The notes below the pieces were generated by a model. The model had not been told where the DNA came from and made no database searches. It saw only the letters and a list, made by a program, of their open reading frames with translations. The position numbers and the translations under genes were made by a program. 52,979 nucleotides of DNA, taken from positions 409,077 to 462,055 of the forward strand of contig JBBTCT010000022.1 of assembly GCA_038060895.1 (NCBI GenBank). Reading direction: 5' to 3'. Within the stretch, counting starts at the first letter, position 1; each line of letters begins with the position of its first letter. Positions 3,510 through 44,071 of the stretch are shown in pieces. This stretch comes from Planctomycetota bacterium. Its GTDB lineage: Bacteria; Planctomycetota; MHYJ01; WSZJ01.

Positions 3510-3708
3510 GGGGGGAGTCCTTGAGTTGAGGGGGGAGGCGGGGGGGAAGACGACGCGACGGGCTAGAGAACGACGGTCGCGACTCGAACCGCGCGGAAAG
3601 GCGCGGCGAGGAGGAGGGTAATTCGAAGGCGGGGTGAGGGCATGGCACCCCCTTGATCGTCCGGGCGGGATTGCGGTTCGAACATCCGTGGGTGGTTTCG
3701 GGTTCGGA

Positions 3709-3890
3709 GTTCCGGAAGTTGAGTTCCGGGTTCCGTGTTCCGGGTTCCGTGTGGGGTTCGGGGTTCGGGGTTTCGGGTTTTGCGAAGTTAACGGAGTTGC
3801 GCTTCCGGCGGTAACCCTCAACAGGAAACCCGCAACTCTGAACCCCACCCGGAACCCGGAACACGGAACCCGGAACTCAACTTCCGGAAC
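3709..3890. repeat. 51-bp near-perfect inverted repeat built from heptamer units (GGGTTCC/GGAACCC-like)
   Basis: Arms 3709-3759 and 3840-3890 are reverse complements with one mismatch; degenerate pairing extends on both sides. Confidence 0.9.
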
Positions 3891-3971
3891 CCGCAACCAT
3901 CAACCCCCCCCGCTTCGTTGACACTCCCCGCCCTGCCCCTTAGCCTGCCCTCCCCTCAGCGGGAGAGGGCG

Positions 3972-4310
3972 ATGGGCGAGCGTCCGAAGACCTGGAAAGA
4001 GTGGTTCGCCCACGCGTTCGCGCTGGACGGCGGGGCGGAGCCCCTCGAGGAAAAGGACGTGGCGCTTCTCGAGAAGCTCGCGAAGGGCGTGGTCTCGCGG
4101 CGGATGACGGCGCCGGCGATCCTTTTTCTGGAAAGCGTCAAGCCGCTGTCGTTCGTAGGCGGGCAGGCGCTGGTCTTTTTCGCCCCCGTGCTCGAGGTCG
4201 TCCTCAAGCGGGAAGAAGTCGAGCGCGGCGCGAAGCTGCTGGAGCGGCGGGACGTGCTGGAAGGCCTGGCCCTGAAGATCGAATCCCTGGAGGCGGAGCG
4301 GCGTGGCTGA
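3972..4310 (+). CDS. Small hypothetical protein, first gene of the GlmL-like operon
   Basis: ATG after ggagagg; overlaps the next start; motif MTAPAILFLESVKPLSFVGGQALVFFAP. Confidence 0.75.
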   Translation: MGERPKTWKEWFAHAFALDGGAEPLEEKDVALLEKLAKGVVSRRMTAPAILFLESVKPLSFVGGQALVFFAPVLEVVLKREEVERGAKLLERRDVLEGLALKIESLEAERRG

Positions 4311-6102
4311 CAGGCCGGTCAACGTGGTGATCGCGACCGATTGCGGGTCGACGACGACGAAGGCGATCCTCATCGAGAAGGTGGGGGACGTCTACCGGCA
4401 GACGTTCCGCGGCGAAGCGCCGACGACGGTGGAAGCGCCGTTCGAGGACGTGACGAAGGGGGTGCTGAACAGCATCCAGGAAATCGAGGAGCTCTCCGGC
4501 CGGAAGATTCTCGACGGCGAAAAGATCATCACGCCCGCGAACGGAAACGTCGGCGTGGACATCTACGTGAGCACGAGCTCGGCCGGCGGCGGGCTGCAGA
4601 TGATGGTGGCGGGCGCGGTGGCGGCGATGACCGGGGAGAGCGCGCAGCGCTGCGCCCTCGGCGGCGGGGCAATCGTCATGGACGTGCTCGCTTCGAACGA
4701 CGGCCGCGCGGGATTCGAGAAGATCGAGCGCATCCGGCAGCTGCGGCCGGACATGATGCTGCTCAGCGGCGGAACCGACGGCGGGACCATCTCGCACGTC
4801 GTCGAGATGGCCGAGTACATCAGCGCCGCGGACCCGAAGCCGCGCCTCGGCATCGGCTACAAGCTCCCGATCATCTTCGCGGGGAACAAGGATGCCGCGA
4901 AGCGCGTGCAGGAAATCCTGGGCGAGAAGATGTCGCTCGAGGTCACCGACAACATCCGCCCGACGCTCGAGCGCGAAAACCTGATGCCCGCGCGGCACCG
5001 GATCCACGACCTCTTCCTGCATCACGTCATGCAGCAGGCGCCGGGCTACAAGAAGCTGATCGCGATGTGCGGCGCGCCGATCATCCCGACGCCCGCCGCG
5101 GTCGGCGACATCATCGAGCGCGTCGCGAAGAAGGAGCAGATCAACGTCCTGGGCGTGGACATCGGCGGCGCGACGACGGACGTGTTCAGCGTCTTCCAGA
5201 AAGTCTTCAACCGCACGGTCAGCGCCAATCTCGGCATGTCCTACTCGATCTCCAACGTCCTCGCCGAAGCGGGGCTCGACAACATCATGCGCTGGGTGCC
5301 CTTCGACATTGACGAGCAGGACCTGCGCAACCGCATCAAGAACAAGATGATCCGCCCGACGACGATCCCTTTCACGGTCGACGAGCTGATGATCGAGCAG
5401 GCGATCGCGCGGGAAGCCCTCCGGCTCGCGCTGACCCAGCACAAGATGCTCGCGGTAGGACTGAAGGGCGTGCAGCAGGAACGCTCCATTTCCGACGCCT
5501 TCTCCCAGACCGCCAGTGGCCAGTCGCTCATCAACATGATGGACCTGCACCTCGTGATCGGCTCCGGCGGCATCCTGTCGCACGCGCCGCGCCGGGTGCA
5601 GTCGATGGTGATGATGACGGACTCGTACCAGCTCGAGGGGATCACGCGCCTCGCGGTCGATTCGATCTTCATGATGCCGCATCTCGGCGTGCTCGCGACC
5701 GTGAACGAAAAGGCCGCGACCGACGCGTTCGAGCACGACTGCATGGTGTACCTCGGCACGTGTATTTCGCCGGTGGGCGTGGCGAAGGACGGCGAGAAGT
5801 GCGTCGATCTGAAGATTTCGGGCGACCTGACGGTGAATGAATCGATCCCATACGGCGAGCTGAAGCTCTACAAGCTCGACGTGGGAAAGACGGCGAAACT
5901 CGAAGCGACGCCGGCGCGTGGATTCGACGTCGGAGCGGGCAAGGGGAAGCCGCTCACGACGACGATCCACGGCGGCGTCGGCGGGGTGCTGGTGGACACG
6001 CGCGGGAGGCCGCTGGTGCTCCCGACGGACAAGAAGCAGCGCGTCGCGGTGCTCACGAAGTGGGCGAAGGCGCTCGACCTGTATCCGGAGCTGAAGCGGT
6101 AA
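4303..6102 (+). CDS. GlmL/MutL (glutamate mutase reactivating factor-like) ASKHA-fold ATPase
   Basis: Phosphate-1 motif TDCGSTTTK, SSAGGGL, LSGGTDGG, PTPAAV, phosphate-2 motif VDIGGATTDVFS, RTVSANLGM and IGSGGILSH. Confidence 0.85.
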   Translation: MADRPVNVVIATDCGSTTTKAILIEKVGDVYRQTFRGEAPTTVEAPFEDVTKGVLNSIQEIEELSGRKILDGEKIITPANGNVGVDIYVSTSSAGGGLQMMVAGAVAAMTGESAQRCALGGGAIVMDVLASNDGRAGFEKIERIRQLRPDMMLLSGGTDGGTISHVVEMAEYISAADPKPRLGIGYKLPIIFAGNKDAAKRVQEILGEKMSLEVTDNIRPTLERENLMPARHRIHDLFLHHVMQQAPGYKKLIAMCGAPIIPTPAAVGDIIERVAKKEQINVLGVDIGGATTDVFSVFQKVFNRTVSANLGMSYSISNVLAEAGLDNIMRWVPFDIDEQDLRNRIKNKMIRPTTIPFTVDELMIEQAIAREALRLALTQHKMLAVGLKGVQQERSISDAFSQTASGQSLINMMDLHLVIGSGGILSHAPRRVQSMVMMTDSYQLEGITRLAVDSIFMMPHLGVLATVNEKAATDAFEHDCMVYLGTCISPVGVAKDGEKCVDLKISGDLTVNESIPYGELKLYKLDVGKTAKLEATPARGFDVGAGKGKPLTTTIHGGVGGVLVDTRGRPLVLPTDKKQRVAVLTKWAKALDLYPELKR

Positions 6103-7223
6103 TGGCACACGCGTACACACCCGGCCTGCGAGTCACGGAATCCGCGGTCATCCGCAAGCGCCGGATCCTGCCCATCCAGGGAACGGTGATGGTCAGGGTC
6201 GGCCAGAAAGTTACCGCCAGCGACGTCGTCGCACGCGCCGAAATCCCCGGCAAGGTCCACACCGTCAACATCGTCAACAAGCTCTCCATCGAAGCGAGCG
6301 AGACGAAGCGCTTCATGAAGAAGAAGGAAACCGAAGTCGTGAAGAAGGACGAGGTCATCGCGGAGAACAGCCCGATGATCAAGTGGTTCAAGACGTCGGT
6401 GACGTCGCCGATTGACGGGACAATCGAGAGCATTTCGGACGTGACAGGGCAGGTACTGCTGCGCGAGCCTCCGCGGCCGCTGAATCTGCTGGCTTACATC
6501 GAAGGAACGATCGTCGAGGTGATCGAACGGGAAGGAGTCGTGATCGAGTGCCCCGCGGCGTTCACGCAGGGCATCTTCGGTATCGGCGGCGAGACGTCGG
6601 GGATCATCGAGCCGGTCGCGAAGTCGCCCGACGCGGACCTGACGCCGGCTGAGATCACTTCCGCGCACGCCGGCAAGATCCTCATCGGCGGCCGGCACGC
6701 GAGCATGGCGGTCATCCGCCGCGCAATCGAGGTCAAGGCCGCCGCGATCGTGATCGGCGGCATCCACGACAAGGACCTGCGCGAAATCCTCGGCAAGGAC
6801 CTGGGCGTCGCCATCACCGGCACCGAGAACGTCGGTTTGACTTTGATCATCACCGAAGGCTTCGGTAGCATCCCGATGGCCCGCAAGACGTTCGACCTTC
6901 TCGTGGGGAAGAAGGGCAGGAAAGCCTCCTGCAGCGGCGCCACGCAGATCCGCGCCGGCGTCATCCGTCCTGAAATCGTCATCCCGGCGGACCACGCCGG
7001 AGGCCCGGGGGGGCCAGAGGGAGAACGGACAGGCATGAAGCCCGGCGACCCCGTCCGCATCATCCGCGAGCCCATGTTCGGGCGGCTCGGCGCCATCAAG
7101 TCGCTTCCGCCGGACCTGACGGCGATCCCGACGGAGTCGCACGTGCGCGTGCTTGTCGTGTCGTTCCCGGACGGGAGCGAGGCGACCATTCCGCGCGCGA
7201 ACGTGGAGACGATCGAAAGCTGA
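6102..7223 (+). CDS. Conserved hypothetical protein with barrel-sandwich hybrid motifs (RnfC/NqrA N-terminal-like) and a C-terminal KOW-like motif
   Basis: TAATG overlap with the ATPase gene; GTVMVRVGQKVTASDVVA and SPIDGTIESIS hybrid motifs; GDPVRIIREPMFGRLG KOW-like end; no Fe-S cysteine cluster. Confidence 0.75.
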   Translation: MAHAYTPGLRVTESAVIRKRRILPIQGTVMVRVGQKVTASDVVARAEIPGKVHTVNIVNKLSIEASETKRFMKKKETEVVKKDEVIAENSPMIKWFKTSVTSPIDGTIESISDVTGQVLLREPPRPLNLLAYIEGTIVEVIEREGVVIECPAAFTQGIFGIGGETSGIIEPVAKSPDADLTPAEITSAHAGKILIGGRHASMAVIRRAIEVKAAAIVIGGIHDKDLREILGKDLGVAITGTENVGLTLIITEGFGSIPMARKTFDLLVGKKGRKASCSGATQIRAGVIRPEIVIPADHAGGPGGPEGERTGMKPGDPVRIIREPMFGRLGAIKSLPPDLTAIPTESHVRVLVVSFPDGSEATIPRANVETIES

Positions 7224-8500
7224 TGAAGCGCCTCCTCTGCGTCTCGCTCTTCCTCGCCTCCGCGGCCGTTGCCCAGGAGCAGCCGCCCGCAGGCAAGCTG
7301 GATCCGCCGAAGGACCTGAGCATTGAAGACGCGGGCGAGGACAACGGCGCCGCGATCAACGTCACCTGGAAGCGCATGCCGTACGACGACAAGGCGACCT
7401 ATACGGTCATGGTCTCGCTTCGCAAGGAAGGCCCCTGGTTCAAGGCCGCCGAGGAGCCCGGCATCGGCATGCTCAAGTCCGATCTGCCCCTTCCGTGGTG
7501 GGCGTCGAGCAAGGACGCCGACACGCGGCTGCTCCAGGTGACGAGCCGCGAGTCCATCTCAGGGCCCCGGCCTCTTCTACCTGAAGAGAACGCCGCGACG
7601 AAGAAGCGCCGCCCGACGCCGGAGTACTGGTGGAAGGTGAAGGTCGAGGCCGAAGGGAAGACCTGGGAATCCGAGGTGATGCAGGTAACGCCCGTGGGAA
7701 ACGCGTTCTTCTGGTCGAAGCTGACGACGTTCTTCTACATGTGCTCCTTCACCGGGATCCTCGTCGTTTTCATCCGGATTGCGCGCACGAGGACGCTCTG
7801 GATCCGCCGCATTCCCGGGCTGGACGCCGTGGACGAGGCCGTGGGCCGCGCGACCGAGATGGGCAAACCCGTGTATTACATGACCGGCCGCGACCCGATC
7901 ACGACCGTGAGCACGGTCGCCGCGACGCTGATTCTCGGCGAGATTGCGAAGAAGGTGGCGGCGTACGACACGCAGCTCAAGGTTCCGCACACCGACGCGA
8001 TCGTCATGGCCGTTTGCCAGGAAATCACCCGCGAAGCCTACATCACCGCGGGCCGCCCGGACGCCTACCGCGCCGATTCGAACTTCTTCGTCACCGACGA
8101 CCAGTTCGGTTACACGGCTGCCGTCGACGGCATGATGGTGCGCGAGAAGCCGGCCGCCGTGTTCATGATGGGCTACTACTACGCTGAGTCGCTCCTCCTC
8201 GCCGAGACCGGCGCTTCGACCGGCGCCATCCAGATCGCCGGCACGGATGCGGACGCGCAGCTCCCGTTCTTCTTCACGGCCTGCGACTACACGCTGATCG
8301 GCGAAGAGCTCTACGCTGCGGGCGCCTACCTCTCCAAGGAGCCCGTGCTTGTCGGGACCCTCCGCGGTCAGGACATCGGCAAGGCCATCCTGCTCTTCAC
8401 TATCCTCGGCGGCGCCCTCCTGGCCACTTTCGGCCAGTGGGGCGGCCTCGGCTTCTCGCACTTCGTAAACGGCTGCCTCGAGCTGTTCAAGGGCTACTAA
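7223..8500 (+). CDS. Membrane module subunit A1: signal peptide, Fn3-like extracytoplasmic domain, TM helix, DUF6754-like domain
   Basis: IRRIPGLDAVDEAVGRATEMGKP...IQIAGTD..QLPFF..ACDYTLIGEELYAA; paralog at 11842. Confidence 0.8.
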   Translation: MKRLLCVSLFLASAAVAQEQPPAGKLDPPKDLSIEDAGEDNGAAINVTWKRMPYDDKATYTVMVSLRKEGPWFKAAEEPGIGMLKSDLPLPWWASSKDADTRLLQVTSRESISGPRPLLPEENAATKKRRPTPEYWWKVKVEAEGKTWESEVMQVTPVGNAFFWSKLTTFFYMCSFTGILVVFIRIARTRTLWIRRIPGLDAVDEAVGRATEMGKPVYYMTGRDPITTVSTVAATLILGEIAKKVAAYDTQLKVPHTDAIVMAVCQEITREAYITAGRPDAYRADSNFFVTDDQFGYTAAVDGMMVREKPAAVFMMGYYYAESLLLAETGASTGAIQIAGTDADAQLPFFFTACDYTLIGEELYAAGAYLSKEPVLVGTLRGQDIGKAILLFTILGGALLATFGQWGGLGFSHFVNGCLELFKGY

Positions 8501-9517
8501 ATGATCTTCCTCAAGCGCCAATTTCCTCTCGCCATCTGCTTCGTGGTCGGCATCGCGATGGCGCTGCAGTACTACGTCCCGAGCACTTGGAGCCAGAAGC
8601 TTGGAAGCCAGATGTCCGACTGGTACATCGTCATCTCGATCTTCGCGGCGTTCTTGGGCTTTGGAAGCGTCGCGCACCTGCACTACCGGAAGGTCTCACT
8701 GAAGGCGCACGGCTGGGGCTACAGCGCGCTGGTGTTCGTCGGCCTCGTCCTGATGCTGATCGTGGGGTTCGCGTCGGGCGGAAAGCAGAGCACGGAACGC
8801 CTGCCGGACGAGCAGGGCGAGAACGGCACGCCAGAAGTCACGAAGGGGCCGGACGGGAAGCCGACGAAGCAGATCGAGCGAGTATTCCGGCCGATCCCTG
8901 ACCAGGAAGAGGAAACGGACGAGATGGAGCTGGCGATAACGACGCCGCCGGTGCCGCTTCCGCCGGAGAAGGACCCAAAGAAATTCAAGGTGCTCGAGGT
9001 CGAGATCGACTACGCCGCCGATGGGAAGGTCACGAAGGCCGTTGAGCGCAAGTACGACCGCAAGGGCAACGTGCTCGCGACGCGCGAGCGAGAGATCGAC
9101 AAGGACGGGGCGCTCGTTCCCTACGAGGGCACCCCGACCTCCTTCGAGTGGGTCTTCCGCAATGTGCTCTTCCCCCTCCAGAGCACCATGTTCGCGCTGC
9201 TGGGGTTCTACATCGCGTCTGCCGCGTTCCGGTCGTTCCGGGCAAAGTCGTTCGAGGCCGGGCTCCTGCTGGTGACCGCGCTGATCGTCCTCATCGGCAA
9301 CGTGCCCTTCACCAATCACCTCTGGGCCGAGGGGCTCGGCATTCATCACGCGCACGGCATCCGCATGGAGATGCCGGACATCGTGGCCTGGCTGATGGGG
9401 ACCCCCAACACGGCCGCCCGGCGCGGAGTCGGATTCGGCGTTGCGCTCGGGATCATCGCGACTTCGCTCAAGATCATCTTCGGAATCGAGCGCGGTTACC
9501 TAGGGGGAGGGGACTAG
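8501..9517 (+). CDS. Membrane module subunit B1: multi-pass membrane protein with a charged loop insertion
   Basis: TMFALLGFYIASAAFRSFRAKS and IIFGIERGYLGG shared with the paralog at 13056. Confidence 0.8.
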   Translation: MIFLKRQFPLAICFVVGIAMALQYYVPSTWSQKLGSQMSDWYIVISIFAAFLGFGSVAHLHYRKVSLKAHGWGYSALVFVGLVLMLIVGFASGGKQSTERLPDEQGENGTPEVTKGPDGKPTKQIERVFRPIPDQEEETDEMELAITTPPVPLPPEKDPKKFKVLEVEIDYAADGKVTKAVERKYDRKGNVLATREREIDKDGALVPYEGTPTSFEWVFRNVLFPLQSTMFALLGFYIASAAFRSFRAKSFEAGLLLVTALIVLIGNVPFTNHLWAEGLGIHHAHGIRMEMPDIVAWLMGTPNTAARRGVGFGVALGIIATSLKIIFGIERGYLGGGD

Positions 9518-9518
9518 G

Positions 9519-10361
9519 GTGGAAAACTTCTGCCGCCGCATCCTCGCCCTCGACCGCCGGTGGATTTTCTTCATCCTCCTGGCGACGCTGATCTTCCCGA
9601 TCGCCTGTCCGCTCAATCTCGAGGGCCTCAAGCCGTCGACGGGCGTGAAGAAGATGTACGACTTCATCGAGGCGATGCCTGAAGGGCAGTCGGTGCTGAT
9701 CTCGTTCGACTACGACCCCTCGTCGGCGCCGGAACTTCAGCCGATGGCGGATGCGGTCATGCGGCACGCGTTCCGCAAGAAGCTGAAAGTCGTGGTGGTG
9801 GGGCTGTGGGTGACCGGGGTGCCGCTCCAGAAATCGACGGTCGAGAAGATCACCAAGGAAGCCGGTGCGAAGGAGGGCGAGGACTACACGCACCTCGGTT
9901 TCAAGCCGGGCAACGTGGCCGTGATCTCGGGCATGGGCGAGGATATCTACGCCACCTTTCCGACGGACGCGAAGGGGACGGCGACCAGCACGATCCCGGT
10001 GATGAAGAAGCTGCGGCGCCTCAAGGACTTCGACCTGGTCGTATCGATCTCGGCGGGGACGCCGGGACTCGACACCTGGATCGCGTACGGCGCAGACAAG
10101 TACAAATTCAAGATCGGCGGCGGCGCGACCGCGGTTCAGTCGCCCGTCATGTCGCCCTACCTCCAGGCAGGCCAGCTCGTCGGGCTCATCCCCGCGATGC
10201 GCGGCGCGGCCGAGTACGAATTCCTCATCGACAAGCCGGGCGCCGGGACGAAGGGCATGGACGCCATCAGCCTCGGGCACTACCTGATCATCGCGCTCAT
10301 CCTGCTCGGCAACGTCGCCTACTTCTACACCCGGACCAAGCCCGCGGGAGGCGTCGCATGA
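9519..10361 (+). CDS. Membrane module subunit C1: alpha/beta domain between N- and C-terminal TM helices
   Basis: GTG start after ggaggg; SFDYDPSSAPELQPM and GQLVGLI..MRGAAEYE shared with the paralog at 13685. Confidence 0.8.
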   Translation: MENFCRRILALDRRWIFFILLATLIFPIACPLNLEGLKPSTGVKKMYDFIEAMPEGQSVLISFDYDPSSAPELQPMADAVMRHAFRKKLKVVVVGLWVTGVPLQKSTVEKITKEAGAKEGEDYTHLGFKPGNVAVISGMGEDIYATFPTDAKGTATSTIPVMKKLRRLKDFDLVVSISAGTPGLDTWIAYGADKYKFKIGGGATAVQSPVMSPYLQAGQLVGLIPAMRGAAEYEFLIDKPGAGTKGMDAISLGHYLIIALILLGNVAYFYTRTKPAGGVA

Positions 10362-11845
10362 GCGAAGTCCTCGGGTTCTGGGTCGCCGCGGCCCTGACGC
10401 TGTTCATGTTCTCGTTCCTGTACAAGGACAATCCCTTCTACCGGATGGGCGAGAACCTCTTCGTTGGCGTCACCATCGGCTACAGCATCGTCATCCTGTA
10501 CTTCGAATCGTGGCTCCCGAAGGTGTGGCGCGTCATCCATCCGGAAGCGGGGGTCTGGTTCGAGAACCGCGAGTGGTGGGTGCTCATCTTCCCCGTCACC
10601 CTCGGCGTCCTCGTCCTCACGCGCTTCATTCCCAAGTGGGCCTGGATGTCCCGCTGGACTTTCGCATTCATCGTCGGGTACGCCTCGGGCCTCGCCATTC
10701 CTGCGACCTTGACGACCTCGATCCAGAAGCAGGCCGCCGGGACCGTGCAGCCGCTCTTGACCCGGACGCCGGACCTGGAGGGGGCGGAAGCGGACGCCAG
10801 GGGTGCGGAAGCGGCGGCGGACGAGGCGGCGAGAAAGGACCCGACGTCTGAGGACGCGCGAGAGGCGCGAGTGCGGGCCGAGGAGCTGCGCCAGAAGGCG
10901 GAGGCTGCCCGTGGAGCGGGCGAGGCTGCCGAGGATGCGGTGTCGGTGGCCGAGTGGAACGAAGCCCGGAAGCCCGTGGTGGCGAAGGCGATTGTGCCGC
11001 TCGTGGAACTGGCAGCGATCGTCGAGGCGAAGGCACCGGCAACTTCCGACCAGATATCGAAGGCGAAGGCGGGACAGGAAGGGGCAGCGAAGGAAGCCGC
11101 GGCGGCCCGGAAGTCCGCGGATGACGAGGCGAAGACCGCGCAGGAACTCGGTGCAGCGGCGGGCAAGGCCAGAGCCGAAGCCGACGCCCTGTGGGCGGCG
11201 AGGGGGAAGACGAAGGAATCCGGTGACGCCGCCCGCGCGGCGCTGGAGACGGCCCGCGTCGAGGCCCGAAAGGCCGCGATTGCGGGGAAGCGCGCCGCCC
11301 GCGCGGGACGGCTGGCGCTCGAGGCTGAGAAGCGTTCCGCGGCCGTCGCGGAGCTCGCGGCGATCATCTTGTCCGGTGCCGCCGCCACCGACGACCAGGC
11401 CGCCAAGGCCCTGAACGATCGCGTCGCCGCAACTAAGTCCGCGCTGGATGCCTCCCAGGCTGCCATCGCGACGCGCATCGGCGCGTGGGACGCGGCGAGC
11501 CGGAAGGAGTACATGCTGCTGACGTTCTACCGCGACGTCTCGGCGCTCATCCTTTTCGTCGGCGTCCTCAGCGTGCTCGTCTACTTCTTCTTCTCCATCG
11601 AGCACAGGGGGCCCGTCAGCAAGATCTCGCGCCTCGGGGTGTGGTTCCTCATGGTGTATTTCGGCGCGTCGTACGGCTATACGGTGATGGGCCGCCTCTC
11701 GCTCCTATACGGCCGCATGTCCTACCTCCTGGACGCCAGCGATCCCAAGCAAGCGTGGTGCGCCACCCCGATTCTCCTCGTGATCATCATCGGCGGGCTC
11801 GTCTTCCTGCACTTCAAGAACAAGGGCCAGGAACCCGCCGCGTGA
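10358..11845 (+). CDS. Membrane module subunit D1: multi-pass membrane protein with a ~250-aa Ala-rich coiled-coil insertion
   Basis: ATGA overlap; SFLYKDNP, SRWTFAFIVG, LVYFFFSIEH.G and FGASYGYTVMGR shared with the paralog at 14542. Confidence 0.8.
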   Translation: MSEVLGFWVAAALTLFMFSFLYKDNPFYRMGENLFVGVTIGYSIVILYFESWLPKVWRVIHPEAGVWFENREWWVLIFPVTLGVLVLTRFIPKWAWMSRWTFAFIVGYASGLAIPATLTTSIQKQAAGTVQPLLTRTPDLEGAEADARGAEAAADEAARKDPTSEDAREARVRAEELRQKAEAARGAGEAAEDAVSVAEWNEARKPVVAKAIVPLVELAAIVEAKAPATSDQISKAKAGQEGAAKEAAAARKSADDEAKTAQELGAAAGKARAEADALWAARGKTKESGDAARAALETARVEARKAAIAGKRAARAGRLALEAEKRSAAVAELAAIILSGAAATDDQAAKALNDRVAATKSALDASQAAIATRIGAWDAASRKEYMLLTFYRDVSALILFVGVLSVLVYFFFSIEHRGPVSKISRLGVWFLMVYFGASYGYTVMGRLSLLYGRMSYLLDASDPKQAWCATPILLVIIIGGLVFLHFKNKGQEPAA

Positions 11846-13056
11846 TCCGCGCCGCGGCTTTTGTGCTCCTGGCGGCGACGGCGGCCACGGCACAGGCCCC
11901 CGCGGATTTCAAGGTGTATGACAGGCCCGGCGATGCCGGCGGGGTGATCATCGCGGAGTGGAAGGGACTCCCCGGGGAGGAAATCCCCGAGACCGCCAGG
12001 CGGATCGAGTACGTGATCTCGGTATCCCTCTCGAAAGACGGCGAGTGGAAGGAGATCAAACGATTTCCCGGGACGCTTCAGCACAAGAACGAAGCCCCGG
12101 AGATCTTCGGATTTTCGAAGTCCAATGAGACCGAGCATTTCATCGCGCTGAAGGGCCTCGTGCCGCCTCCCGGCGGGCCTTGGCTCGGGACCGGGAAGTC
12201 GCTTCCAACGTGGGTCAAGCTCGAGGTCATTTCACCCGCGGGGACCGCGATCGCGGGGCCACTGGTTGCGGAGGCGAAGCCGAACTGGTGGGCGTGGAAC
12301 AAGACAAACGTCTTCGTCTTCATCCTGATTTTCGGCGTCGTGACGTTCTGGTTGATCTCCAAGGCGCGGCGCAACCCGAACATATTCGTTCGGCGGATCC
12401 CGGGGCTGGACGCGATGGAAGAAGCCATCGGGCGCGCGACGGAGATGGGGCGGCCGATCCTGTACCTGAACGGTCTCCAGTCCATGGAATCGATCTCGAC
12501 GATCGCCTCGGTGAGCATCCTGGGGCAGATTTCGAAGCGGGTGGCGAGTTACGACTCGCAGATTCTCGTCCCGTGCCGCGACGCGGTCGTGCTGTCAGTC
12601 TGCCAGGAAGTCATGCGCGAGGGATTCACCGCGGCTGGGCGGCCTGACAAGTACCGCGAGCAGGACGCGTGGTTCATCACGCAGGAGCAGTTCAGCTATG
12701 TGGCGTCGGTGGACGGACTCATGATCCGCGAGAAGCCCGCGGCGTGCCTGTACATGGGGTACTACTACGCCGAGTCGCTCCTTCTCGCCGAAACCGGCGG
12801 CGCGACCGGCGCCATCCAGATCGCCGGGACCGACTCCATCACGCAACTCCCGTTTTTCATCGCCTGCTGTGATTACACGCTGATCGGGGAAGAGCTGTAC
12901 GCCGCCAGCGCGTACCTCTCCCGGGAACCGCTCCAGCTCGGATCGCTCCGCAGCCAGGACGCGGGCAAAATCTTCATCATCGCGACGCTTTTCCTCGGGG
13001 CGCTGACGGCCGCCGCAGGCTATCCGTTCGTCAAACACCTCCTGGCGACCTTCTGA
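11842..13056 (+). CDS. Membrane module subunit A2 (DUF6754-like, paralog of A1)
   Basis: GTGA overlap; signal peptide; VRRIPGLDAMEEAIGRATEMGRP...YYYAESLLLAETG. Confidence 0.8.
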   Translation: MIRAAAFVLLAATAATAQAPADFKVYDRPGDAGGVIIAEWKGLPGEEIPETARRIEYVISVSLSKDGEWKEIKRFPGTLQHKNEAPEIFGFSKSNETEHFIALKGLVPPPGGPWLGTGKSLPTWVKLEVISPAGTAIAGPLVAEAKPNWWAWNKTNVFVFILIFGVVTFWLISKARRNPNIFVRRIPGLDAMEEAIGRATEMGRPILYLNGLQSMESISTIASVSILGQISKRVASYDSQILVPCRDAVVLSVCQEVMREGFTAAGRPDKYREQDAWFITQEQFSYVASVDGLMIREKPAACLYMGYYYAESLLLAETGGATGAIQIAGTDSITQLPFFIACCDYTLIGEELYAASAYLSREPLQLGSLRSQDAGKIFIIATLFLGALTAAAGYPFVKHLLATF

Positions 13057-13688
13057 TGGGACACCTGAAGCGCACCGTTCCGCTTGCGATCGCCTTTATT
13101 TTCGGCTTCGGGCTCATCATCCAGTACTTCGTCCCTCACCCCGTGAGCCAGCGGGCGCTCGGGATGACCCAGCGCTGGGTGACGATCGTCGGCTTCGTCT
13201 CGCTGCTGCTCGGCATCGGGTCGCTCTTCCAATCCCACTGGCGGAAGATCAATGCCCAGGTCCCCGGGTGGGGGTATTCCGTGGTCACACTTGGGGTTTT
13301 TCTGCTCACCGTTGCGGCCGGTTTCCACCCGAAGAATGACAAGCCGGGCGGCCCCCTCCTCTGGGCTTTCAACAATACGTACTCGCCGATGTCGGCCACG
13401 ATGTTTTCGCTCCTGGGCTTCTTCATCGCGAGTGCCGCCTTCCGCGCTTTCCGCGCCCGTTCCCTCGAGGCGTCGCTTCTCCTGGTCACCGCCGTCATCG
13501 TCATGCTTGGCCAGGTGCCGTTGGGCGCCCACATCCCCGGGGCCTCAAGTTTCTCGGCCTGGATTCTCGGCGTGCCTCTCACGGCGGCGAAGCGCGCCCT
13601 GACTCTGGGCATTGCGCTTGGCGCCATCGCCACGGCGCTTCGCATCATTTTCGGCATCGAACGCTCCTACCTCGGGGGGCGCGAATGA
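13056..13688 (+). CDS. Membrane module subunit B2 (paralog of B1, no insertion)
   Basis: TGATG overlap; TMFSLLGFFIASAAFRAFRARS; IIFGIERSYLGG. Confidence 0.8.
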   Translation: MGHLKRTVPLAIAFIFGFGLIIQYFVPHPVSQRALGMTQRWVTIVGFVSLLLGIGSLFQSHWRKINAQVPGWGYSVVTLGVFLLTVAAGFHPKNDKPGGPLLWAFNNTYSPMSATMFSLLGFFIASAAFRAFRARSLEASLLLVTAVIVMLGQVPLGAHIPGASSFSAWILGVPLTAAKRALTLGIALGAIATALRIIFGIERSYLGGRE

Positions 13689-14545
13689 CCGACGAGCTGC
13701 GCAAGAACGTCACGCGCTGGGCCATCTTCGCCACGGTCGCGGTCGTGGTCGTCGTTTCGCTCCGCGCCAAGGGCGTCAGCGACTTCAAGGCCACCCCTGT
13801 GGTGATGAAGGTGTACGACGCGATCGAGAGCCTTCCCGACGGGTCCCCGCTTCTCATCAGCTCCGATTTCGACCCTGGAAGCGAAGCCGAGCTTGAGCCG
13901 ATGATGCGCGCGATCCTGGTCCAGTGCTGGCGCAAGAAGCTCCGCGTTGTCGTCATGTCGATCTGTAGCGTCAACAGTCCGCCTCTCGCCGCGCGCATCC
14001 TCAAGGAGTCCGCGGCCGCGCACGGCGCCGTCTACGGCACGGACTACGTGCAGTTCGGTTACCAGGCAGGAGGAACCGCCCCGATCCTCGCGCTCGGGCA
14101 GGACTGGTTCGCCGTGTACCCGAAGGACGAGAACGGGACGCCGTCTCGTGAGATCCCGGCGATGAAGGGAATCACGAAGCTGACTGACTTCCCGTTGTGC
14201 CTCGAAATCGCGGCGGTCACGACCGTGGAGTACTGGCTCCTCGCGGGCAACGCGAAGTACGGTCTGAGGCTCGCTCTCGGCGTCACCGCCGTCATGGCCA
14301 CCGACAATTACCAGTACCTCGCCACGGGCCAGGTCGTCGGGATCATCGGCGGCATCGCCGGCGCTTCGCAGTATGAATCCCTCACCCGCCGCGACGACTT
14401 GAAGACGGCGCGCGAGACCCGCAAGGACGGCGGCCTCGCGTCGTCGCGCATGCCGACCCAATCCGCCATCCACGTCGCGATCATTCTGCTGATCGTGATC
14501 GGGAACATCCTTTACTTCGTGGGCCGGAAAAAGGCGAAGGCATGA
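13685..14545 (+). CDS. Membrane module subunit C2 (paralog of C1)
   Basis: ATGA overlap; SSDFDPGSEAELEPM; GQVVGIIGGIAGASQYE. Confidence 0.8.
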   Translation: MTDELRKNVTRWAIFATVAVVVVVSLRAKGVSDFKATPVVMKVYDAIESLPDGSPLLISSDFDPGSEAELEPMMRAILVQCWRKKLRVVVMSICSVNSPPLAARILKESAAAHGAVYGTDYVQFGYQAGGTAPILALGQDWFAVYPKDENGTPSREIPAMKGITKLTDFPLCLEIAAVTTVEYWLLAGNAKYGLRLALGVTAVMATDNYQYLATGQVVGIIGGIAGASQYESLTRRDDLKTARETRKDGGLASSRMPTQSAIHVAIILLIVIGNILYFVGRKKAKA

Positions 14546-15432
14546 TCCTCCACCTCCTCGCGCAGACCGCCGCCGCCCCCGCCGACAGGGGCTTCTGGGA
14601 AAGCGACGCCATGGGCGTCCTGGGCGTCTGGGCCTCGGTCGGATTCACGCTCGCGCTCTATACCTTCCTCTACAAGGACAACGCCGTCTTCAAGTTCGCC
14701 GAACACGTCTACGTCGGCGTCACCAACGGCTGGATCCTCTGGCAGGCCTGGTTCTCGTCCGTCAAACCCCACCTGGTCTATCCGCTCGGCCGGCTCTGCG
14801 GCCACGATGTCTTCCGGCGCAACCTGAAACTCGAGGAAGGCGACACCTGGTGGCTCCTCGTCCCCGCCGCCTTCTCGATCTTCATGCTCCTTCGCTTCAT
14901 CCCCAAAGCCTCCTGGCTCTCCCGTTGGTCCTTCGCGTTCATCGTCGGCACCACGGCCGGCACCCAGCTTCCCCTGCAGGTCCAGGCGTTCCTCTTCCGC
15001 CAGATGTCCCCCATGCTGGAAAGTCCCCTCAAGCACGGAGACGACGGCGGATTCCTCTTCATGGGAACCCTCTCCGCCATTCTCCTGTTCATCGGCGTCA
15101 TCTCCGTCCTCGTATACTTCGTCTTCGCCATCGAGCACAAGGGCGCCGTCCGCCCCATCGCCCGCACCGGCGTCATCTTCCTCATGATCGCCTTCGGCGC
15201 GCACTTCGGTTACACGGTCATGGGCCGCGAATCGCTCCTCATCGAGCGCGTGCAGTACCTCATCGGGACCGCCGAGGCTGAAGGCGCCAAGGGCAAGCCG
15301 AACCCCCACCACGCCACCCTCTGGCTGCTCCTCGCCGTCGTTGCGGCTGTCGTCGTCCTGGAGGTCCTCCGCGTGAGACGCGAAGAGGAAGCGAAGGCCA
15401 CGGCTGAGCCGGCCCAGGGTCCTCCGGCCTGA
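14542..15432 (+). CDS. Membrane module subunit D2 (paralog of D1, no coiled coil)
   Basis: ATGA overlap; TFLYKDNA, SRWSFAFIVG, LVYFVFAIEHKG, FGAHFGYTVMGR. Confidence 0.8.
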   Translation: MILHLLAQTAAAPADRGFWESDAMGVLGVWASVGFTLALYTFLYKDNAVFKFAEHVYVGVTNGWILWQAWFSSVKPHLVYPLGRLCGHDVFRRNLKLEEGDTWWLLVPAAFSIFMLLRFIPKASWLSRWSFAFIVGTTAGTQLPLQVQAFLFRQMSPMLESPLKHGDDGGFLFMGTLSAILLFIGVISVLVYFVFAIEHKGAVRPIARTGVIFLMIAFGAHFGYTVMGRESLLIERVQYLIGTAEAEGAKGKPNPHHATLWLLLAVVAAVVVLEVLRVRREEEAKATAEPAQGPPA

Positions 15433-15477: not shown

Positions 15478-17301
15478 ATGAAGCAGTCCATCCTCGTCGC
15501 CATCCTCGCCGCGAGCCTGAGCGCCGCGGAAACGCAGATGCCTGCGCCCGAACTGTTGTCTGCCGCCGAGATCCAAAAGCGCGCCGCCGCGTTCAAGTTT
15601 GAGAAGGGCCGGGTCGGCGGGACTCTTCACGACTGGATCGATTCGGACGTGACGTCCTGGAACCTTGCGCTGTCGACGGATCACCAGACGAGCAGCGTTC
15701 TGGACGGCAACGTCTTCCAGTCGTTGTTTCGCAGGGATCCGGTCACGTTGGGCTGGCAGCCTTGCCTTGCCGCGGAAGTGCCGGCCCGGAGTGATGACGA
15801 GGACGGGCGCGTGTGGGTCGTGAAACTTCGCCGGGGCGTGACCTGGAGTGACGGCAAGCCTTTCGGCGCGGACGACGTGGTATTCACGATCAACGACATC
15901 GTCCTGAACGAGTCGATTCCCTGCCCGGCGCGACAGGCGCTTCAGATGATGGTGAAGGACGAAGCGACAGGGACGACGGCGAAGGCGAATTTGCGGGTCG
16001 AGAAGATCGACGATCACACCGTGCAGTTCACGCTGCCGAAGCGGACCGCGCTCTACATGAACGCGATCAATGGGACGAACCTGTATCCCAGGCACGTCCT
16101 CGGGAAGCGTGTTGCGGACGGGACGTTCGACTCGGTCTGGGGACTCTCAACGCCGCCCGCAGAAATCGTTGGGACCGGGCCCTTCGTGGTGTCGGAAAGA
16201 CACGAAGGGGAGAAAATCGTTCTCAAACGAAGCCCGCGATATTGGGAGAAGGACGAGGCGGGCGAGTTTCTTCCCTATGTCGAGTCCTGGGAGTTCTCGG
16301 TGGTCTCTTCGCCCGACGCGCAGCTCCGGCGGTTCCAGGAGGGCAAGCTGGATTATTACGAGGCGAGGCCCGTCGACATCGACGTCCTCGCGAAGGGTGC
16401 CGCGAAAGGGAATTACGACCTCGTCTCGATGGGGCCCCGGCCGGCCTGGAGCTACCTTTCGTTCAACCAGAACCCACGTTCGCGTCCGGACGGCACACCG
16501 TACGTCGCGCCGCACAAGTCATCGTGGTTCCGCGACGTGCGCTTTCGGCGCGCCGTGGCCCACTGCGTCGATCGGGACCGGATCGTGAGAGAAGTCCATT
16601 CCGGCAGGGCAACCCCGCTCTGGGGCCCCTATACCCCGAAGTACGCCGAGTTCTACACGGAGGAAGTGGCGAAGTACCCGTTCGACCTGGCGAAAGCGGG
16701 CGCGCTCCTTGATGAGATGGGCCTCAAGGACACGGATGGCGATGGCCTGCGCGACGACGGGCAGGGGAACGCGGCGGAATTCCGGCTGACGGCGGTCGCG
16801 GACCAGCCGACTCTCGTGACGATGGTGACGATCATTGGGGAGAGCCTGAAAAAGGCCGGCGTCCGGCTCGTCCCGGAGTTCATTCAGTTCAACCTTCTGC
16901 TGCGGCGCATTTCGCAGGACTGGGACTGGGAAGCGCTCCTCCTCTCGTATTCCTCCGGCCTCGAACCGCTCCTCGGCAAGACGATCTGGAAAACCGGCGA
17001 GGCGCGCCGGATCTGGAATCCGAAGGCCGACCCGGCCGCTGCCGAAACTCGGGACTGGGAGCGTCGCCTCGACGCGATCTTTGACGAGGCATACACGCAC
17101 TGGGACCCGAAGTCGCGCTCCTTTGGCCGCTCGAAGGACATCGCGCTCGCCCACGAATGGCAGCGGATCTGCGCGGAACAGCTGCCTCACATCTATCTCT
17201 TCGCCGGGACGAGCATCTACGCCATCTCCCGCCGGCTGGGCAACGTTCGTACGACCCTCCATTCCTTGTACGACTCCGAGCGGGTTTTCATCCGGAAATA
17301 G
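15478..17301 (+). CDS. ABC transporter substrate-binding protein, family 5 (OppA/DppA-like)
   Basis: LRRGVTWSDGKPFGADDVVFT, VGTGPF, FRDVRFRRAV; signal peptide. Confidence 0.9.
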   Translation: MKQSILVAILAASLSAAETQMPAPELLSAAEIQKRAAAFKFEKGRVGGTLHDWIDSDVTSWNLALSTDHQTSSVLDGNVFQSLFRRDPVTLGWQPCLAAEVPARSDDEDGRVWVVKLRRGVTWSDGKPFGADDVVFTINDIVLNESIPCPARQALQMMVKDEATGTTAKANLRVEKIDDHTVQFTLPKRTALYMNAINGTNLYPRHVLGKRVADGTFDSVWGLSTPPAEIVGTGPFVVSERHEGEKIVLKRSPRYWEKDEAGEFLPYVESWEFSVVSSPDAQLRRFQEGKLDYYEARPVDIDVLAKGAAKGNYDLVSMGPRPAWSYLSFNQNPRSRPDGTPYVAPHKSSWFRDVRFRRAVAHCVDRDRIVREVHSGRATPLWGPYTPKYAEFYTEEVAKYPFDLAKAGALLDEMGLKDTDGDGLRDDGQGNAAEFRLTAVADQPTLVTMVTIIGESLKKAGVRLVPEFIQFNLLLRRISQDWDWEALLLSYSSGLEPLLGKTIWKTGEARRIWNPKADPAAAETRDWERRLDAIFDEAYTHWDPKSRSFGRSKDIALAHEWQRICAEQLPHIYLFAGTSIYAISRRLGNVRTTLHSLYDSERVFIRK

Positions 17302-17354
17302 GGTACGACTCTCCTTCTCCCTACGTCCCCGGGGGGGCTAGAATCGCCGCCCGC

Positions 17355-19205
17355 ATGAAGCGCCTCCTCCTGCCGCCCGCCATCGTTCTCGCAGGCTTCT
17401 GGTTTTTCATCTGGCTGTTCCGGACGAGCCAGGGAGATCCGCTTCCTGAGAAGGCGCCCGCCACGGTGCAGGAGATGCTGGAAGCGGCGAAGAATTTCAA
17501 GTTTGAAATCGGCACGTACGGCGGCGTGCTGAACGACTGGGTCGATGAGGACATGAAGACGTTCAACTACCTCATGGCCAATGACGCGCAGACGTCGAGC
17601 GTGTTCGGCAACAACATCGTCTTCGAGACGCTGTTTACGTCGGATGCGGTGACGCTGGAAATCCAGCCGCAGCTTGCCGCGGAATTGCCGACCCACAGCG
17701 AAGATGCGGAGGGGCTCGTCTGGCTCCTCAAGCTGCGCAACGACGTCGTGTGGCATGACGGGGCGCCGTTCACCGCGGACGACGTCGTGTTCACATGGAA
17801 CGAAATCATGATGAACGAGACAGTCCCGTACCCGGGGCGTGCCGCTCTTTATGTGCCGGTCAAGGACGAGTCCGGCAAGGTTGTTCCGAAGGCGAACAAG
17901 GTTGAAAAGGTCGACGAATTCACGCTCAGGTTCACGCTTCCCAGACGCCATGCGCTTTACCTCACGCGCATGAACATCACGGTTTACCCGAAGCACGTCC
18001 TGAAGCCGCGGATCGATGACGGATCCTTCACGAGCACCTGGAACGTCGGGACGCCTCCTGCCCAGGTCATCGGGACCGGGCCGTTCATTCCCTCTGAGTA
18101 CGTGCCGGGAGAGCGCTTTATCCTGAAGCGCAACCCCAACTATTGGATGAAGGACGAGGCGGGGAACCGGCTGCCCTACCTCGACCGGATTGTCTTCAAC
18201 ATCATCGCCGGCCCGGAAAAGCAGAAGGAGCGGTTCCTCCTCGGCGAGCTGGACTACTTCGAGGTCAACCCGCTTTCGTTCGCGGAGATCTGGCGCAAGC
18301 GTATCGAAAAGGGTTACGACGTGATCCGCATGGGCCCGCGTCCCGGGTGGGGATACATCGCGTTCAACCAGAACCCGCGGAGCCGGCCGGACGGCAAGCC
18401 ATACGTGAAGCCGTGGAAATCGAAGTGGTTCCGGGACATTCGCTTCCGGCGAGCCTTCGTGCACGCGATGGACAAGGACAGCATCATCCAGGTCTCTTAC
18501 GACGGCTTCGCGTCCCCTATCTGGGCGCCGTACACGCCACGGTTTCCCAAGTACTACACTGACAAAGTGCGGAAGTATCCCTACGACCTGGACGCGTCGA
18601 GGAAGCTTCTGGACGAGATGGACCTGAAGGACCGGGACGGCGACGGGATCCGCGAAGACTCAGAAGGGCATCCGGTCGAGATCATCCTGACTTTGACGAC
18701 GGGTCAGCCCGAGTACGAGCGGATGGTCCCGATCATCCAGCAGGACATGCGCCGCGTCGGAGTCCGGCTGATTCCTGAATTCGTGCAGTTCAACCTGCTG
18801 TTGAACAAGATTTCTGCGGACTGGGATTTCGACGCGGTCATGATGGGCAACAACACGAACGCTGAGCCCCTCCTGAGCGGCAAGATCCTCGTCAATCCCG
18901 GGGACGCCCGGCGCGTCTGGAACCCGAAATCTCCGCCTGGGAGCGCCGAGAACCGCGACTGGGAGCTGCGCCTGCCGCAGATCTTTGACGAGGCCTACAC
19001 GAGCTGGGACGAGAAAGAGAGGCGCTTCCGGTCAGAGCGCGACGTCGAGCTTGCTCATGAGTGGCAGATGCTGTGCGCCGAGAACCTGCCGCACATCTAC
19101 ACGCTGGTGCGAGACCAGGTCTACGCCTTCTCGCATCGCGTCAAGAACCGGCGGTCCACGCCGAACTCGCTTTACGACATCGAGCGGCTGTACACCGACA
19201 AATGA
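17355..19205 (+). CDS. ABC transporter substrate-binding protein, family 5 (second paralog)
   Basis: LRNDVVWHDGAPFTADDVVFT, IGTGPF, RNPNYW; N-terminal TM anchor; ATG at 17355. Confidence 0.9.
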   Translation: MKRLLLPPAIVLAGFWFFIWLFRTSQGDPLPEKAPATVQEMLEAAKNFKFEIGTYGGVLNDWVDEDMKTFNYLMANDAQTSSVFGNNIVFETLFTSDAVTLEIQPQLAAELPTHSEDAEGLVWLLKLRNDVVWHDGAPFTADDVVFTWNEIMMNETVPYPGRAALYVPVKDESGKVVPKANKVEKVDEFTLRFTLPRRHALYLTRMNITVYPKHVLKPRIDDGSFTSTWNVGTPPAQVIGTGPFIPSEYVPGERFILKRNPNYWMKDEAGNRLPYLDRIVFNIIAGPEKQKERFLLGELDYFEVNPLSFAEIWRKRIEKGYDVIRMGPRPGWGYIAFNQNPRSRPDGKPYVKPWKSKWFRDIRFRRAFVHAMDKDSIIQVSYDGFASPIWAPYTPRFPKYYTDKVRKYPYDLDASRKLLDEMDLKDRDGDGIREDSEGHPVEIILTLTTGQPEYERMVPIIQQDMRRVGVRLIPEFVQFNLLLNKISADWDFDAVMMGNNTNAEPLLSGKILVNPGDARRVWNPKSPPGSAENRDWELRLPQIFDEAYTSWDEKERRFRSERDVELAHEWQMLCAENLPHIYTLVRDQVYAFSHRVKNRRSTPNSLYDIERLYTDK

Positions 19206-21205: not shown

Positions 21206-22414
21206 ATGGCCGACCCTGCCCCCAACGCAAAGTTCGTCGAGCAGACCACAGCGGTCCGTTCGCCGAATCAGATTGCCTGGGCAAAGCTGAAGCAGCACAC
21301 GCTCGCAATCTACGGAGGGCTGGTCCTGATCGTGCTGTACCTGGCGGCCCTGTTCGCGGACGTCCTGGCACCCTACGATTTCGAGACGCAGTTCCGGACG
21401 AAGCCCTGGCATCCGCCGAGCGTGATCCACTGGCGCCACGCGGACGGGACGTTCAGCACTCCCTTCGTCTACAACACGGTGAAGCTGCGCGACGAGGCCT
21501 ACCAGGCGCACTTCGTCGAGGTCTCTCCCGAGAACATGGAGTTCCTGAAGGGTCGCATCGGCCCGAGCTTCAAAGATCAGCCGACCGAGTACCACCTGAA
21601 GTTCTTCCCGAAGGGTGACCCGCACAAGTTCCTCGGCGTCATCGCGATGGAGCGGCGCCTCTTCGGCGTCGAGTCGAACGACTCGCTGAACCGGCCGGCG
21701 TTCTTCCTGCTCGGGTCGGAACAGCTCGGCCGCGACCTCTTCAGCCGAATCCTGTACGGATCCCGTGTGTCGCTTTCGGTCGGATTGATCGGCGTGGTCA
21801 TCACGTTCACGCTGGGAATGACGATCGGGGGAATCTCGGGGTACTTCCGGGGCAAGACTGACACGGTCCTGCAGCGGTTGATCGAGATGATCATGCTCCT
21901 CCCGGGCTTTTACATCATGCTGTCGCTCAGGGCGGCGCTACCGCCTGACCTCGGAACCATCCAGACCTACTTCGCGATCATCCTCATCCTGTCGTTCATA
22001 GGCTGGGCGGGGCTGGCGCGGACGACGCGCGGGCTCGTGATGTCGATCTCGCAGAACGACTACATCACAGCGTCGCGCGCGCTGGGCGTGAGCAGTCTGT
22101 CGCTGATCATGAAGCACATCCTGCCGCAGACGTTTTCGTACGCGGTTGTCGTGGCTTCCATGGCGATCCCGGGGTACATGCTGGGCGAGTCGGGCCTGTC
22201 GTACCTCGGGCTGGGGATCCAGGAGCCGTATTCCTCATGGGGAAACATGCTGCAGGCGGCAGGGACCGGCAACGACATCAAGCTGCACCCGTGGGTTCTC
22301 GTTCCCGGTTTCATGATCTTCATCACCATCGTCGCGTGGAACTTCCTCGGCGACGGGCTCCGCGACGCGTTCGACCCGAAGACAATCCTGAACGCGAAGA
22401 AGGGGGGCGCATGA
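21206..22414 (+). CDS. ABC permease (OppC/DppC-like)
   Basis: [46 protein letters not shown]. Confidence 0.92.
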
Positions 22415-23376: not shown

Positions 23377-23382
23377 GGAAAC

Positions 23383-35200: not shown

Positions 35201-35342
35201 GCGGCGATTGTAGCCACGGGTTTGACGGGATACCTTCGGGGGCTGGAAGTTGCCCCTTCGAGTTTCCTTGATAGTTGCCGTCTTGAAAGTTGAAGGTTCG
35301 CGGTAAGATTCCCACCCCACCCCGGGAGAAGCCCCAAGCGCG

Positions 35343-39603: not shown

Positions 39604-39625
39604 GGCTCGCCTCCGGTTCGGGGTG

Positions 39626-43233: not shown

Positions 43234-43394
43234 TCGGGCGTCCCCCGAAAGGGAAGCGCCCCGACTGGTGGCCCGGGTTCAACAGTGATGGTAAATCCAG
43301 GGAGGGCAGCGAAGAAGCGGTAATCATGCATGGCCGATTCCTCGATAAGACGTGCCCTCCCCGAATCCGTTACTTCACGACCCGCATGGGATCC

Positions 43395-43925: not shown

Positions 43926-44055
43926 GGGTCTCTCCTTGTTTCGAATGGGTTGCGCCGGACTTAGGTCCGAGTGCGTGTGGGAGTCCCCGGCCTCGTCGCG
44001 AGACTGACAGGAAACTCGCATTTCCCAGCGTCGTGGCCGGGGACACTCTTCCCTT

Positions 44056-44071
44056 TGCAACGCCTGTGCCC
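44056..44071 (-). promoter_or_regulatory. sigma54 -24/-12 promoter motif
   Basis: Minus strand gGGCAC-aggcg-TTGCA, ~130 bp upstream of 43925. Confidence 0.65.

Follow-up and report, generated by a model that had tools for sequence, protein, structure and literature searches.

The question raised by this locus is what an ATPase of the MutL/GlmL family does at the head of a run of membrane protein genes. The locus lies at positions 3972-15432 of a 52,979-nucleotide (nt) stretch of DNA, hereafter the window, from a Planctomycetota bacterium (GTDB lineage Bacteria; Planctomycetota; MHYJ01; WSZJ01; assembly GCA_038060895.1, contig JBBTCT010000022.1, positions 409,077 to 462,055 of the forward strand). 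Our analysis indicates that it is one copy of a widespread seven-gene system in which the membrane module is duplicated in tandem, and that this is very probably a real ATPase-plus-membrane system, unrelated to B12 mutases. With regard to its function, we favour, at a probability of about 0.4, an ATP-driven machine in which hydrolysis in the cytoplasm powers work done beyond the membrane, on polypeptides or on envelope material. The eleven genes, designated g0 to g2 for the ATPase set and A to D for the two membrane sets, are as follows:

g0, 3972-4310, + strand: small protein of 112 amino acids (aa), ATG start at 3972 picked
g1, 4303-6102, + strand: 599-aa ASKHA ATPase of the Pfam family MutL/GlmL
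g2, 6102-7223, + strand: 373-aa constant partner of g1, ATG start at 6102 picked
A1, 7223-8500, + strand: DUF6754 protein of the first membrane set
B1, 8501-9517, + strand: predicted membrane protein with six transmembrane (TM) helices and a 130-aa insertion
C1, 9519-10361, + strand: TM helix, Rossmann-like alpha/beta domain predicted to be periplasmic, TM helix; paralogue of C2
D1, 10358-11845, + strand: polytopic membrane protein with a 260-aa Ala-rich insertion, ATG start at 10358 picked
A2, 11842-13056, + strand: second DUF6754 protein with an A1-like architecture, GTG start at 11842 picked
B2, 13056-13688, + strand: compact protein of 210 aa with six predicted TM helices
C2, 13685-14545, + strand: TM helix, Rossmann-like domain, TM helix
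D2, 14542-15432, + strand: polytopic membrane protein of 296 aa

For g0, g2, D1 and A2 the start codon was chosen from its position and from agreement with the orthologues. All eleven genes are on the + strand, and the ten junctions from g0 to D2 measure -8, -1, -1, 0, +1, -4, -4, -1, -4 and -4 nt in a window with a G+C content of 62-70%, confirming the co-oriented and tightly packed arrangement given in a preliminary description of this DNA. The duplication of the A-B-C-D set claimed there is also real, as BLASTP searches identified all four pairs as paralogous: A1 and A2 share 44% identity over 386 columns (E 1.7e-106), B1 and B2 35-52% (E 2e-28), C1 and C2 36% (E 3e-51), and D1 and D2 33-56% (E 1e-23). 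No relation was detected by hhalign between B and D or between A and C, the two pairs compared. Neither the window nor the 830-nt leader contained an Rfam family, none of the 11 proteins was matched by PADLOC (anti-phage defence), and a promoter and terminator scan returned nothing above chance. An imperfect palindrome of 226 nt (window 3687-3912, with 93-nt arms that are 84% complementary and a 40-nt loop) ends 60 nt before g0; it has 76 strand matches on many contigs of the genome at 67-91% identity and resembles a repetitive extragenic palindromic (REP) element or a miniature inverted-repeat transposable element (MITE), and was rejected as an operon-specific leader because it is a dispersed genomic repeat.

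The evidence that the ATPase belongs with the membrane proteins comes from gene order and from co-occurrence. A pattern scan using one genome per species identified at least 622 DUF6754 loci, of which the best 80 were studied, with carriers in the Nitrospirota (the nitrite-oxidising Nitrospira), NC10 methanotrophs, Elusimicrobiota, Latescibacterota, Binatia, Gemmatimonadota, anammox Planctomycetota, WOR-3 and others. Among the 62 loci having more than 4.2 kb of upstream sequence, g0, g1 and g2 all precede A in 50, and a partial g0-g2 set interrupted by a contig or locus edge is found in five, all from Elusimicrobia; A is preceded by g0 alone in two loci (Binatia) and by none of the three in the remaining five. 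Downstream of A, the genes B, C and D follow in all 68 loci with sufficient DNA. Genomes with a stand-alone A-D set contain g1 elsewhere in 3/5 cases, and judging by gene content it is possible that the membrane module functions in the absence of the ASKHA pair. The Binatia loci L078 and L079 (1-13500) have g0-A-B-C-D without g1-g2, with a complete Opp/Dpp operon of the same orientation approximately 2 kb upstream; two minus-strand genes lie between operon and module in L078, the genome of which, of unstated completeness, gave no PF13941 match. Two tandem C genes (A-B-C-C-D) are present in L065 (Latescibacterota, 11808-13447) and L074 (titled Gemmatimonas sp., 11921-13542), and a gene for a PMT_2-type glycosyltransferase is located between g2 and A in the Elusimicrobia loci L060 (6258-9850) and L067 (7731-9899), together with a B12-binding radical SAM gene in L060.

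When 31 related genomes were compared, DUF6754 and the MutL family PF13941 were found in exactly the same 17, and the glutamate mutase E subunit in none of the 31. The same association was seen at the level of the phylum, in a sample of 121 genomes (120 that are at least 90% complete plus the genome studied here): a strong g1 is present in 31 of the 33 DUF6754 carriers, versus none of the 88 non-carriers. The genome itself, which is 86.5% complete, has no match for Met_asp_mut_E (PF06368), and B12-binding domains are absent from the window, with the nearest of the nine matches in the genome being 56 kb away. The proposal that g1 is an orphan GlmL-like ATPase lacking its mutase partner is thus borne out, and the comparison with the mutase genes across genomes, suggested in the preliminary description, favours the link between ATPase and A-D, since the two co-occur both in the relatives and in the phylum and the E subunit of the mutase is absent. 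Searches for papers on DUF6754, on PF13941 and on GlmL in Nitrospira found no description of the system, with most subscription journals and the supplements falling outside these searches.

The ATPase itself has the features expected from its family assignment. The match of g1 to the Pfam MutL profile (PF13941) scores 408.7 bits against a threshold of 27 bits, and aligns residues 9-480 with profile positions 1-450, so that g1 shares the whole 450-position profile and the ASKHA motifs with GlmL/MutL and Or-4. However, it does not reach the cut-off of NF040745 (GlmL equivalog, methylaspartate mutase accessory; 216.7 bits, cut-off 475), of NF040744 (Or-4, GlmL-related ornithine degradation; 193.4 bits, cut-off 600) or of a third NCBIfam GlmL model (164.3 bits, cut-off 204), and it differs from these proteins by a C-terminal extension of approximately 120 aa and, from GlmL, by the absence of a mutase both here and in the relatives and by its constant company of g2 and DUF6754 membrane proteins. 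A search of the PDB with the g1 sequence gave no match. In an alignment of 25 orthologues from several phyla the mean column identity is 72%, and the sequences DCGSTTTK (13-20), DIGGATTD (286-293) and GSGG (420-423) are invariant; we take these to be the ASKHA nucleotide-binding motifs DxGxT, DxGGxTxD and GSGG. As far as can be judged from sequence, invariant motifs combined with such high conservation are what one would expect of a functional ATPase that belongs to a core machine.

The partner protein g2 is encoded by a single gene in the genome and has a mean column identity of 64% across 64 orthologues. It probably combines a barrel-sandwich hybrid with an alpha/beta domain and has a KOW-like C-terminus: the g2 of the window has no Pfam match at E <= 0.01, and a profile built from 21 sequences gave a weak match of residues 315-355 to the Spt5 KOW domain (E 0.0098, 18 bits), while RnfC_N or Biotin_lipoyl is present in 11-30%, and RnfC_N or NQRA_N in 10-30%, of the members of its structural neighbours in the Atlas, and a g2 homologue in the Bacillota locus L103 matches NQRA_N with 41 bits (cut-off 25). 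Any likeness to NqrA and RnfC would concern this putative N-terminal barrel-sandwich hybrid; no redox cofactor motif was seen in g2, and Rnf or Nqr membrane subunits are lacking. In some lineages g1 and g2 appear to be fused, because an Atlas cluster of 876-aa proteins, 98% of them PF13941-positive, matches g2 by structure; forms of approximately 1054 aa have MutL matches followed by barrel-sandwich matches.

Other fusions of g1 place it at the membrane. Fused forms in the Bacillota have a signal peptide, an M1-peptidase ectodomain and a TM helix, followed by g1 as the cytoplasmic end; in one of these (P0244) the sequence HEIAH is followed 18 residues later by Glu, presumably the M1-peptidase motif, and another fused form has an ectodomain of TSP3 repeats. 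Locus L103, from a Bacillota metagenome-assembled genome, contains two tandem g1-g2 pairs (4300-15400) with the second g1 being of the M1-peptidase type, and these are followed by an IclR regulator and a two-component pair; no A-D genes were found in this locus by tblastn (E <= 1e-3). The small protein g0 has no Pfam or NCBIfam match; in it, two predicted cytoplasmic helices flank a conserved hydrophobic hairpin (PA..FLES..P..F.GSQ), and R43, A49, P58, Q65 and P72 are invariant in 26 orthologues. It stays with A-D in the Binatia loci L078 and L079 and with g1-g2 in L091 and L092, and is a candidate membrane anchor or adaptor.

With regard to the membrane proteins, the DUF6754 family (PF20539) is matched by A1 with 367.9 bits and by A2 with 380.8 bits (threshold 27 bits), and g0, g2, B, C and D have no Pfam or NCBIfam match that reaches the cut-off. 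The AlphaFold2 model of A1 suggests a signal peptide, a periplasmic FN3-like domain, a TM helix, the cytoplasmic DUF6754 domain and a C-terminal TM helix. Its outward domain matches the FN3 fold with Z 8.9, and a Foldseek search with the A model returned FN3 matches only, whereas the cytoplasmic alpha/beta part (residues 208-342) matches at least eight universal stress protein chains with Z 7.6-8.7 and a root mean square deviation of about 3 Å over 103-113 residues, in a model with a predicted local distance difference test score (pLDDT) of 66. The DUF6754 domain has dozens of invariant residues. The B proteins, a family with 3165 representative proteins at E <= 0.001, are predicted to have six TM helices with both termini inside; the 130-aa insertion of B1 is rich in Glu, Pro and Lys and is located in the outward TM3-TM4 loop, and B1 also has a sub-threshold Acyl_transf_3 match (23.1 bits, cut-off 31). 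The AlphaFold2 model of C2 (pLDDT 89.4, predicted template modelling score 0.83) has a Rossmann-like domain between two TM helices, for which the fold matches are generic, the best having Z 9.1 (1kjn), followed by KTN/RCK, transhydrogenase dIII and GT-B halves. For D2 the Atlas gave no named family (TM-score <= 0.24). Sequence searches of the PDB gave no match for A, B and D and chance-level matches for C. Apart from DUF6754 and the Acyl_transf_3 match, A-D have no Pfam or NCBIfam match at E <= 0.01 and hence no likeness to ABC, MFS, TRAP, PTS or ECF families, consistent with what had been read from the sequence at the outset.

A recurrent feature of A and B is the variation of their outward parts. 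Long DUF6754 proteins include a subset with PQQ-type beta-propeller families besides DUF6754 (among 120 listed of 705), and many B proteins have insertions in the outward TM3-TM4 loop; among 14 long B forms that were scanned, one has WD40, one FG-GAP and one TPR, and the other 11 have no Pfam family reaching the cut-off. Read from these domain matches, the outward parts of A and B appear to be swapped between lineages for protein-binding scaffolds. In the window, large insertions are present in the proximal module only (B1, 8501-9517, and D1, 10358-11845, the latter with 260 aa of which 33% are Ala); these are young and lineage-specific, as the proximal copies in the related genome G018 lack them.

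The tandem A-D-A-D arrangement is also found in five related genomes (G009, G018, G021, G027 and G029) from at least four other families of the class, and in 1/80 of the distant loci. In a tree of 33 A sequences, two rows of which are long-branched and unreliable, the distal copies (A2 and those of the five related genomes) form one group with support 90/88, and A1 groups with the proximal copies and with sequences from other phyla (support 88/99). The genome has one g1, one g2 and two A-D sets, which supports, as a fit to the gene content, the earlier suggestion that one ATPase module is shared by two membrane sets. This can be extended to the relatives: the 17 carriers all have a single g1 match, and 13/17 have two or more DUF6754 matches, so one motor for two diverged modules would be a feature of the class. 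Some other genomes of the phylum have two or three ATPases and two DUF6754 genes, as if the whole system had been copied there.

Immediately downstream of D2, after 45 nt, is the following set of genes:

Opp/Dpp-type ABC importer, 15478-24789, + strand: complete, with two SBP_bac_5 proteins, two permeases and two oligo_HPY ATPases

The + strand shows no terminator-like site in the stretch from D2 to the first SBP gene, and the two Opp/Dpp-type ATPase genes (22237-24789) have the only oligo_HPY matches in the 5.4-Mb assembly. Opp/Dpp genes (PepT family) are contiguous and co-oriented with the cluster in 13/90 loci, in at least five arrangements: they are located between g2 and A in three Elusimicrobia loci, are split around g2-A-B-C-D in L069, follow D as an ATPase pair in four loci, lie upstream of the cluster in Binatia, and are represented by a binding protein ahead of g0 in L084 and L088. 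The oligo_HPY pair next to the cluster is the sole one in the genome in 3/5 of the other genomes checked. Peptidase genes are frequent neighbours as well, with a trypsin-like gene and an M14 gene in the window, an S55 gene in L070, and a large gene with PD40 repeats and sub-threshold peptidase-like matches in L065. The Opp/Dpp importer adjoins the cluster but is a separate and complete system with ATPases of its own, and we regard it as an associated system, not as a core part.

In the machine that we favour, g1-g2 would dock at the cytoplasmic face via g0 and/or the DUF6754 domain and hydrolyse ATP, and the resulting conformational change would be relayed through A-D to the outward domains, which would act on polypeptide or envelope material by holding or processing it; the adjacent Opp/Dpp-type importer found in several lineages could then take up the products. 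In the window, two diverged membrane modules would share one ATPase set, and the first of them has the extra outward insertions. Work on macromolecules outside the cell fits better than solute transport because the outward protein-binding scaffolds are interchangeable and the engine inside is constant, and for the same reason we find the new transporter or group translocator of the preliminary description the poorer fit. The proposal has parallels in known systems. In DdrAB and GdrAB, the reactivases of diol and glycerol dehydratase, an ASKHA ATPase bearing additional domains serves as an ATP-driven switch for a partner domain of Rossmann-like fold, and g1-g2 facing the alpha/beta DUF6754 domain could operate in the same mode; here there is no B12 enzyme, and the partner would be a membrane protein. 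ABC systems of the MacB, FtsEX and LolCDE type relay cytoplasmic ATP hydrolysis to periplasmic domains, and the proposed logic of a cytoplasmic ATPase, membrane subunits and working outward domains is alike, although g0-D2 contain neither an ABC_tran nor an FtsX domain and the ATPase fold is different. A further-reaching version is tentative, and we consider it possible but rather doubtful: this would be a new class of energy-coupled envelope machine, powered by an ATPase of the Hsp70/actin fold and not by an ABC, AAA+ or proton-motive engine, in which g1-g2 pull a polypeptide through A-D or drive its capture and processing at the outer face, with an Opp-type importer taking up the products and, in the lineage studied here, two specialised modules running on one motor.

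Several observations weigh against the favoured machine. The A1 model is mediocre (mean pLDDT 66) and leaves the most conserved stretch, residues 318-380, unmodelled, the fold matches of A and C are generic (Z of about 8-9), and the only basis for the topologies is hydrophobicity together with the positive-inside rule. An outside-in sensor would be just as compatible with variable ectodomains, and in some loci other genes are found inside the cluster (PMT_2, B12-radical SAM, DUF445 and toxin-antitoxin-like genes). With regard to the uptake of products, oligo_HPY is missing from 6/17 related carriers, three of which are at least 96% complete, and is present in 13 of the 14 non-carriers among the 31 relatives, so peptide import is not an obligate partner. 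The idea that the presence of Opp/Dpp tracks the system was therefore rejected, the two being unrelated in the 31 relatives, and we read the link as a recurrent but optional alliance. The hint at peptide substrates in the preliminary description thus stands in part: Opp/Dpp genes do recur beside or inside the cluster, but the six related carriers manage without such a gene.

One alternative, put forward in the preliminary description, is a new ATP-driven importer or group translocator, with B and D forming the pathway and g1-g2 either energising uptake or phosphorylating an entering peptide or amino acid derivative. The six predicted TM helices of B, the polytopic nature of D, the many kinases in the ASKHA superfamily and the Opp/Dpp genes and peptidases next to the cluster in several phyla are all consistent with this. 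We nevertheless consider it rather unlikely, since Pfam, NCBIfam, PDB sequences and the Atlas all gave no likeness to a transporter family, swappable outward beta-propellers, TPR and FN3 domains are unusual for solute carriers, and the neighbouring Opp system is complete and has ATPases of its own. Those same ectodomains, together with a constant cytoplasmic domain, are the usual design of a receptor, and A-D could be an outside-in sensor in which the ectodomains recognise a ligand or partner, and g1-g2 are controlled by the conserved cytoplasmic domain and then act on a cytoplasmic target; the resemblance of the cytoplasmic part of A to nucleotide-binding universal stress proteins (Z 8.0-8.7) points the same way. 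However, no conserved output domain or regulator was found in the flanks and no known signalling domain in the Pfam and NCBIfam searches, and four membrane subunits with a very conserved ATPase exceed what a sensor usually needs, making this reading improbable.

We give equally little weight to a membrane-bound enzyme complex for envelope lipids or glycans, in which g1 would activate a substrate with ATP and the Rossmann-like domain of C would bind a ligand resembling a nucleotide sugar. The weak similarity of the C domain to GT-B glycosyltransferase halves, the PMT_2 gene in L060 and L067, and lpxK, cdsA and a SurA-like gene near some loci would agree with this, but the fold matches are generic, the neighbours are variable, no catalytic motif was identified, and the predicted outward orientation of the C domain would place it on a side of the membrane where one would not expect nucleotide sugars. 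Membrane-anchored actin-like filaments, with g1 polymerising and A-D as the anchor for cell shape or compartment organisation, could draw on the ASKHA fold common to MreB, FtsA and ParM, on the very high conservation of g1, and on a weak MreB-like_C match in one fused g1 form (18.2 bits, cut-off 27.8). As g1 is a member of the hydantoinase/GlmL branch, for which polymerisation is not known, we regard such filaments as very unlikely. This leaves the possibility that g1 is a true GlmL, acting as a reactivating chaperone for a coenzyme-B12 mutase encoded elsewhere. Its membership of the MutL family agrees with that role, and MutL/GlmL is called a chaperone for glutamate mutase reactivation in a figure legend (PMC4682846). 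The scores below all NCBIfam GlmL cut-offs, the lack of a mutase E subunit in the genome and its 31 relatives and of a B12-binding domain in the window, and the co-occurrence with DUF6754, which is exact in the relatives and near-exact in the phylum sample, bring the true-GlmL explanation close to refuted.

Elsewhere in the window, on the - strand, 32639-35398 encodes a 919-aa protein with a PPDK_N ATP-binding domain and a C-terminal mobile domain of the phosphoenolpyruvate (PEP) utilisers, for which Pfam gave no match to the PEP-utilisers C-terminal domain. The region 37759-47815 (- strand) is a dense signalling block, containing three response-regulator-GGDEF proteins, one of which also has GAF and PAS domains, as well as a lone receiver protein and two multi-PAS histidine kinases.

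Finally, with a mean column identity of 72% across phyla, g1 is about as conserved as core housekeeping proteins, whereas databases label the ATPase as 'glutamate mutase L' and the other proteins as hypothetical, so that at minimum there are thousands of annotations to correct. If the system is a true ATP-driven trans-membrane machine, it would represent a new type of engine in cell-envelope biology, and could explain how many uncultured bacteria handle extracellular proteins and peptides.

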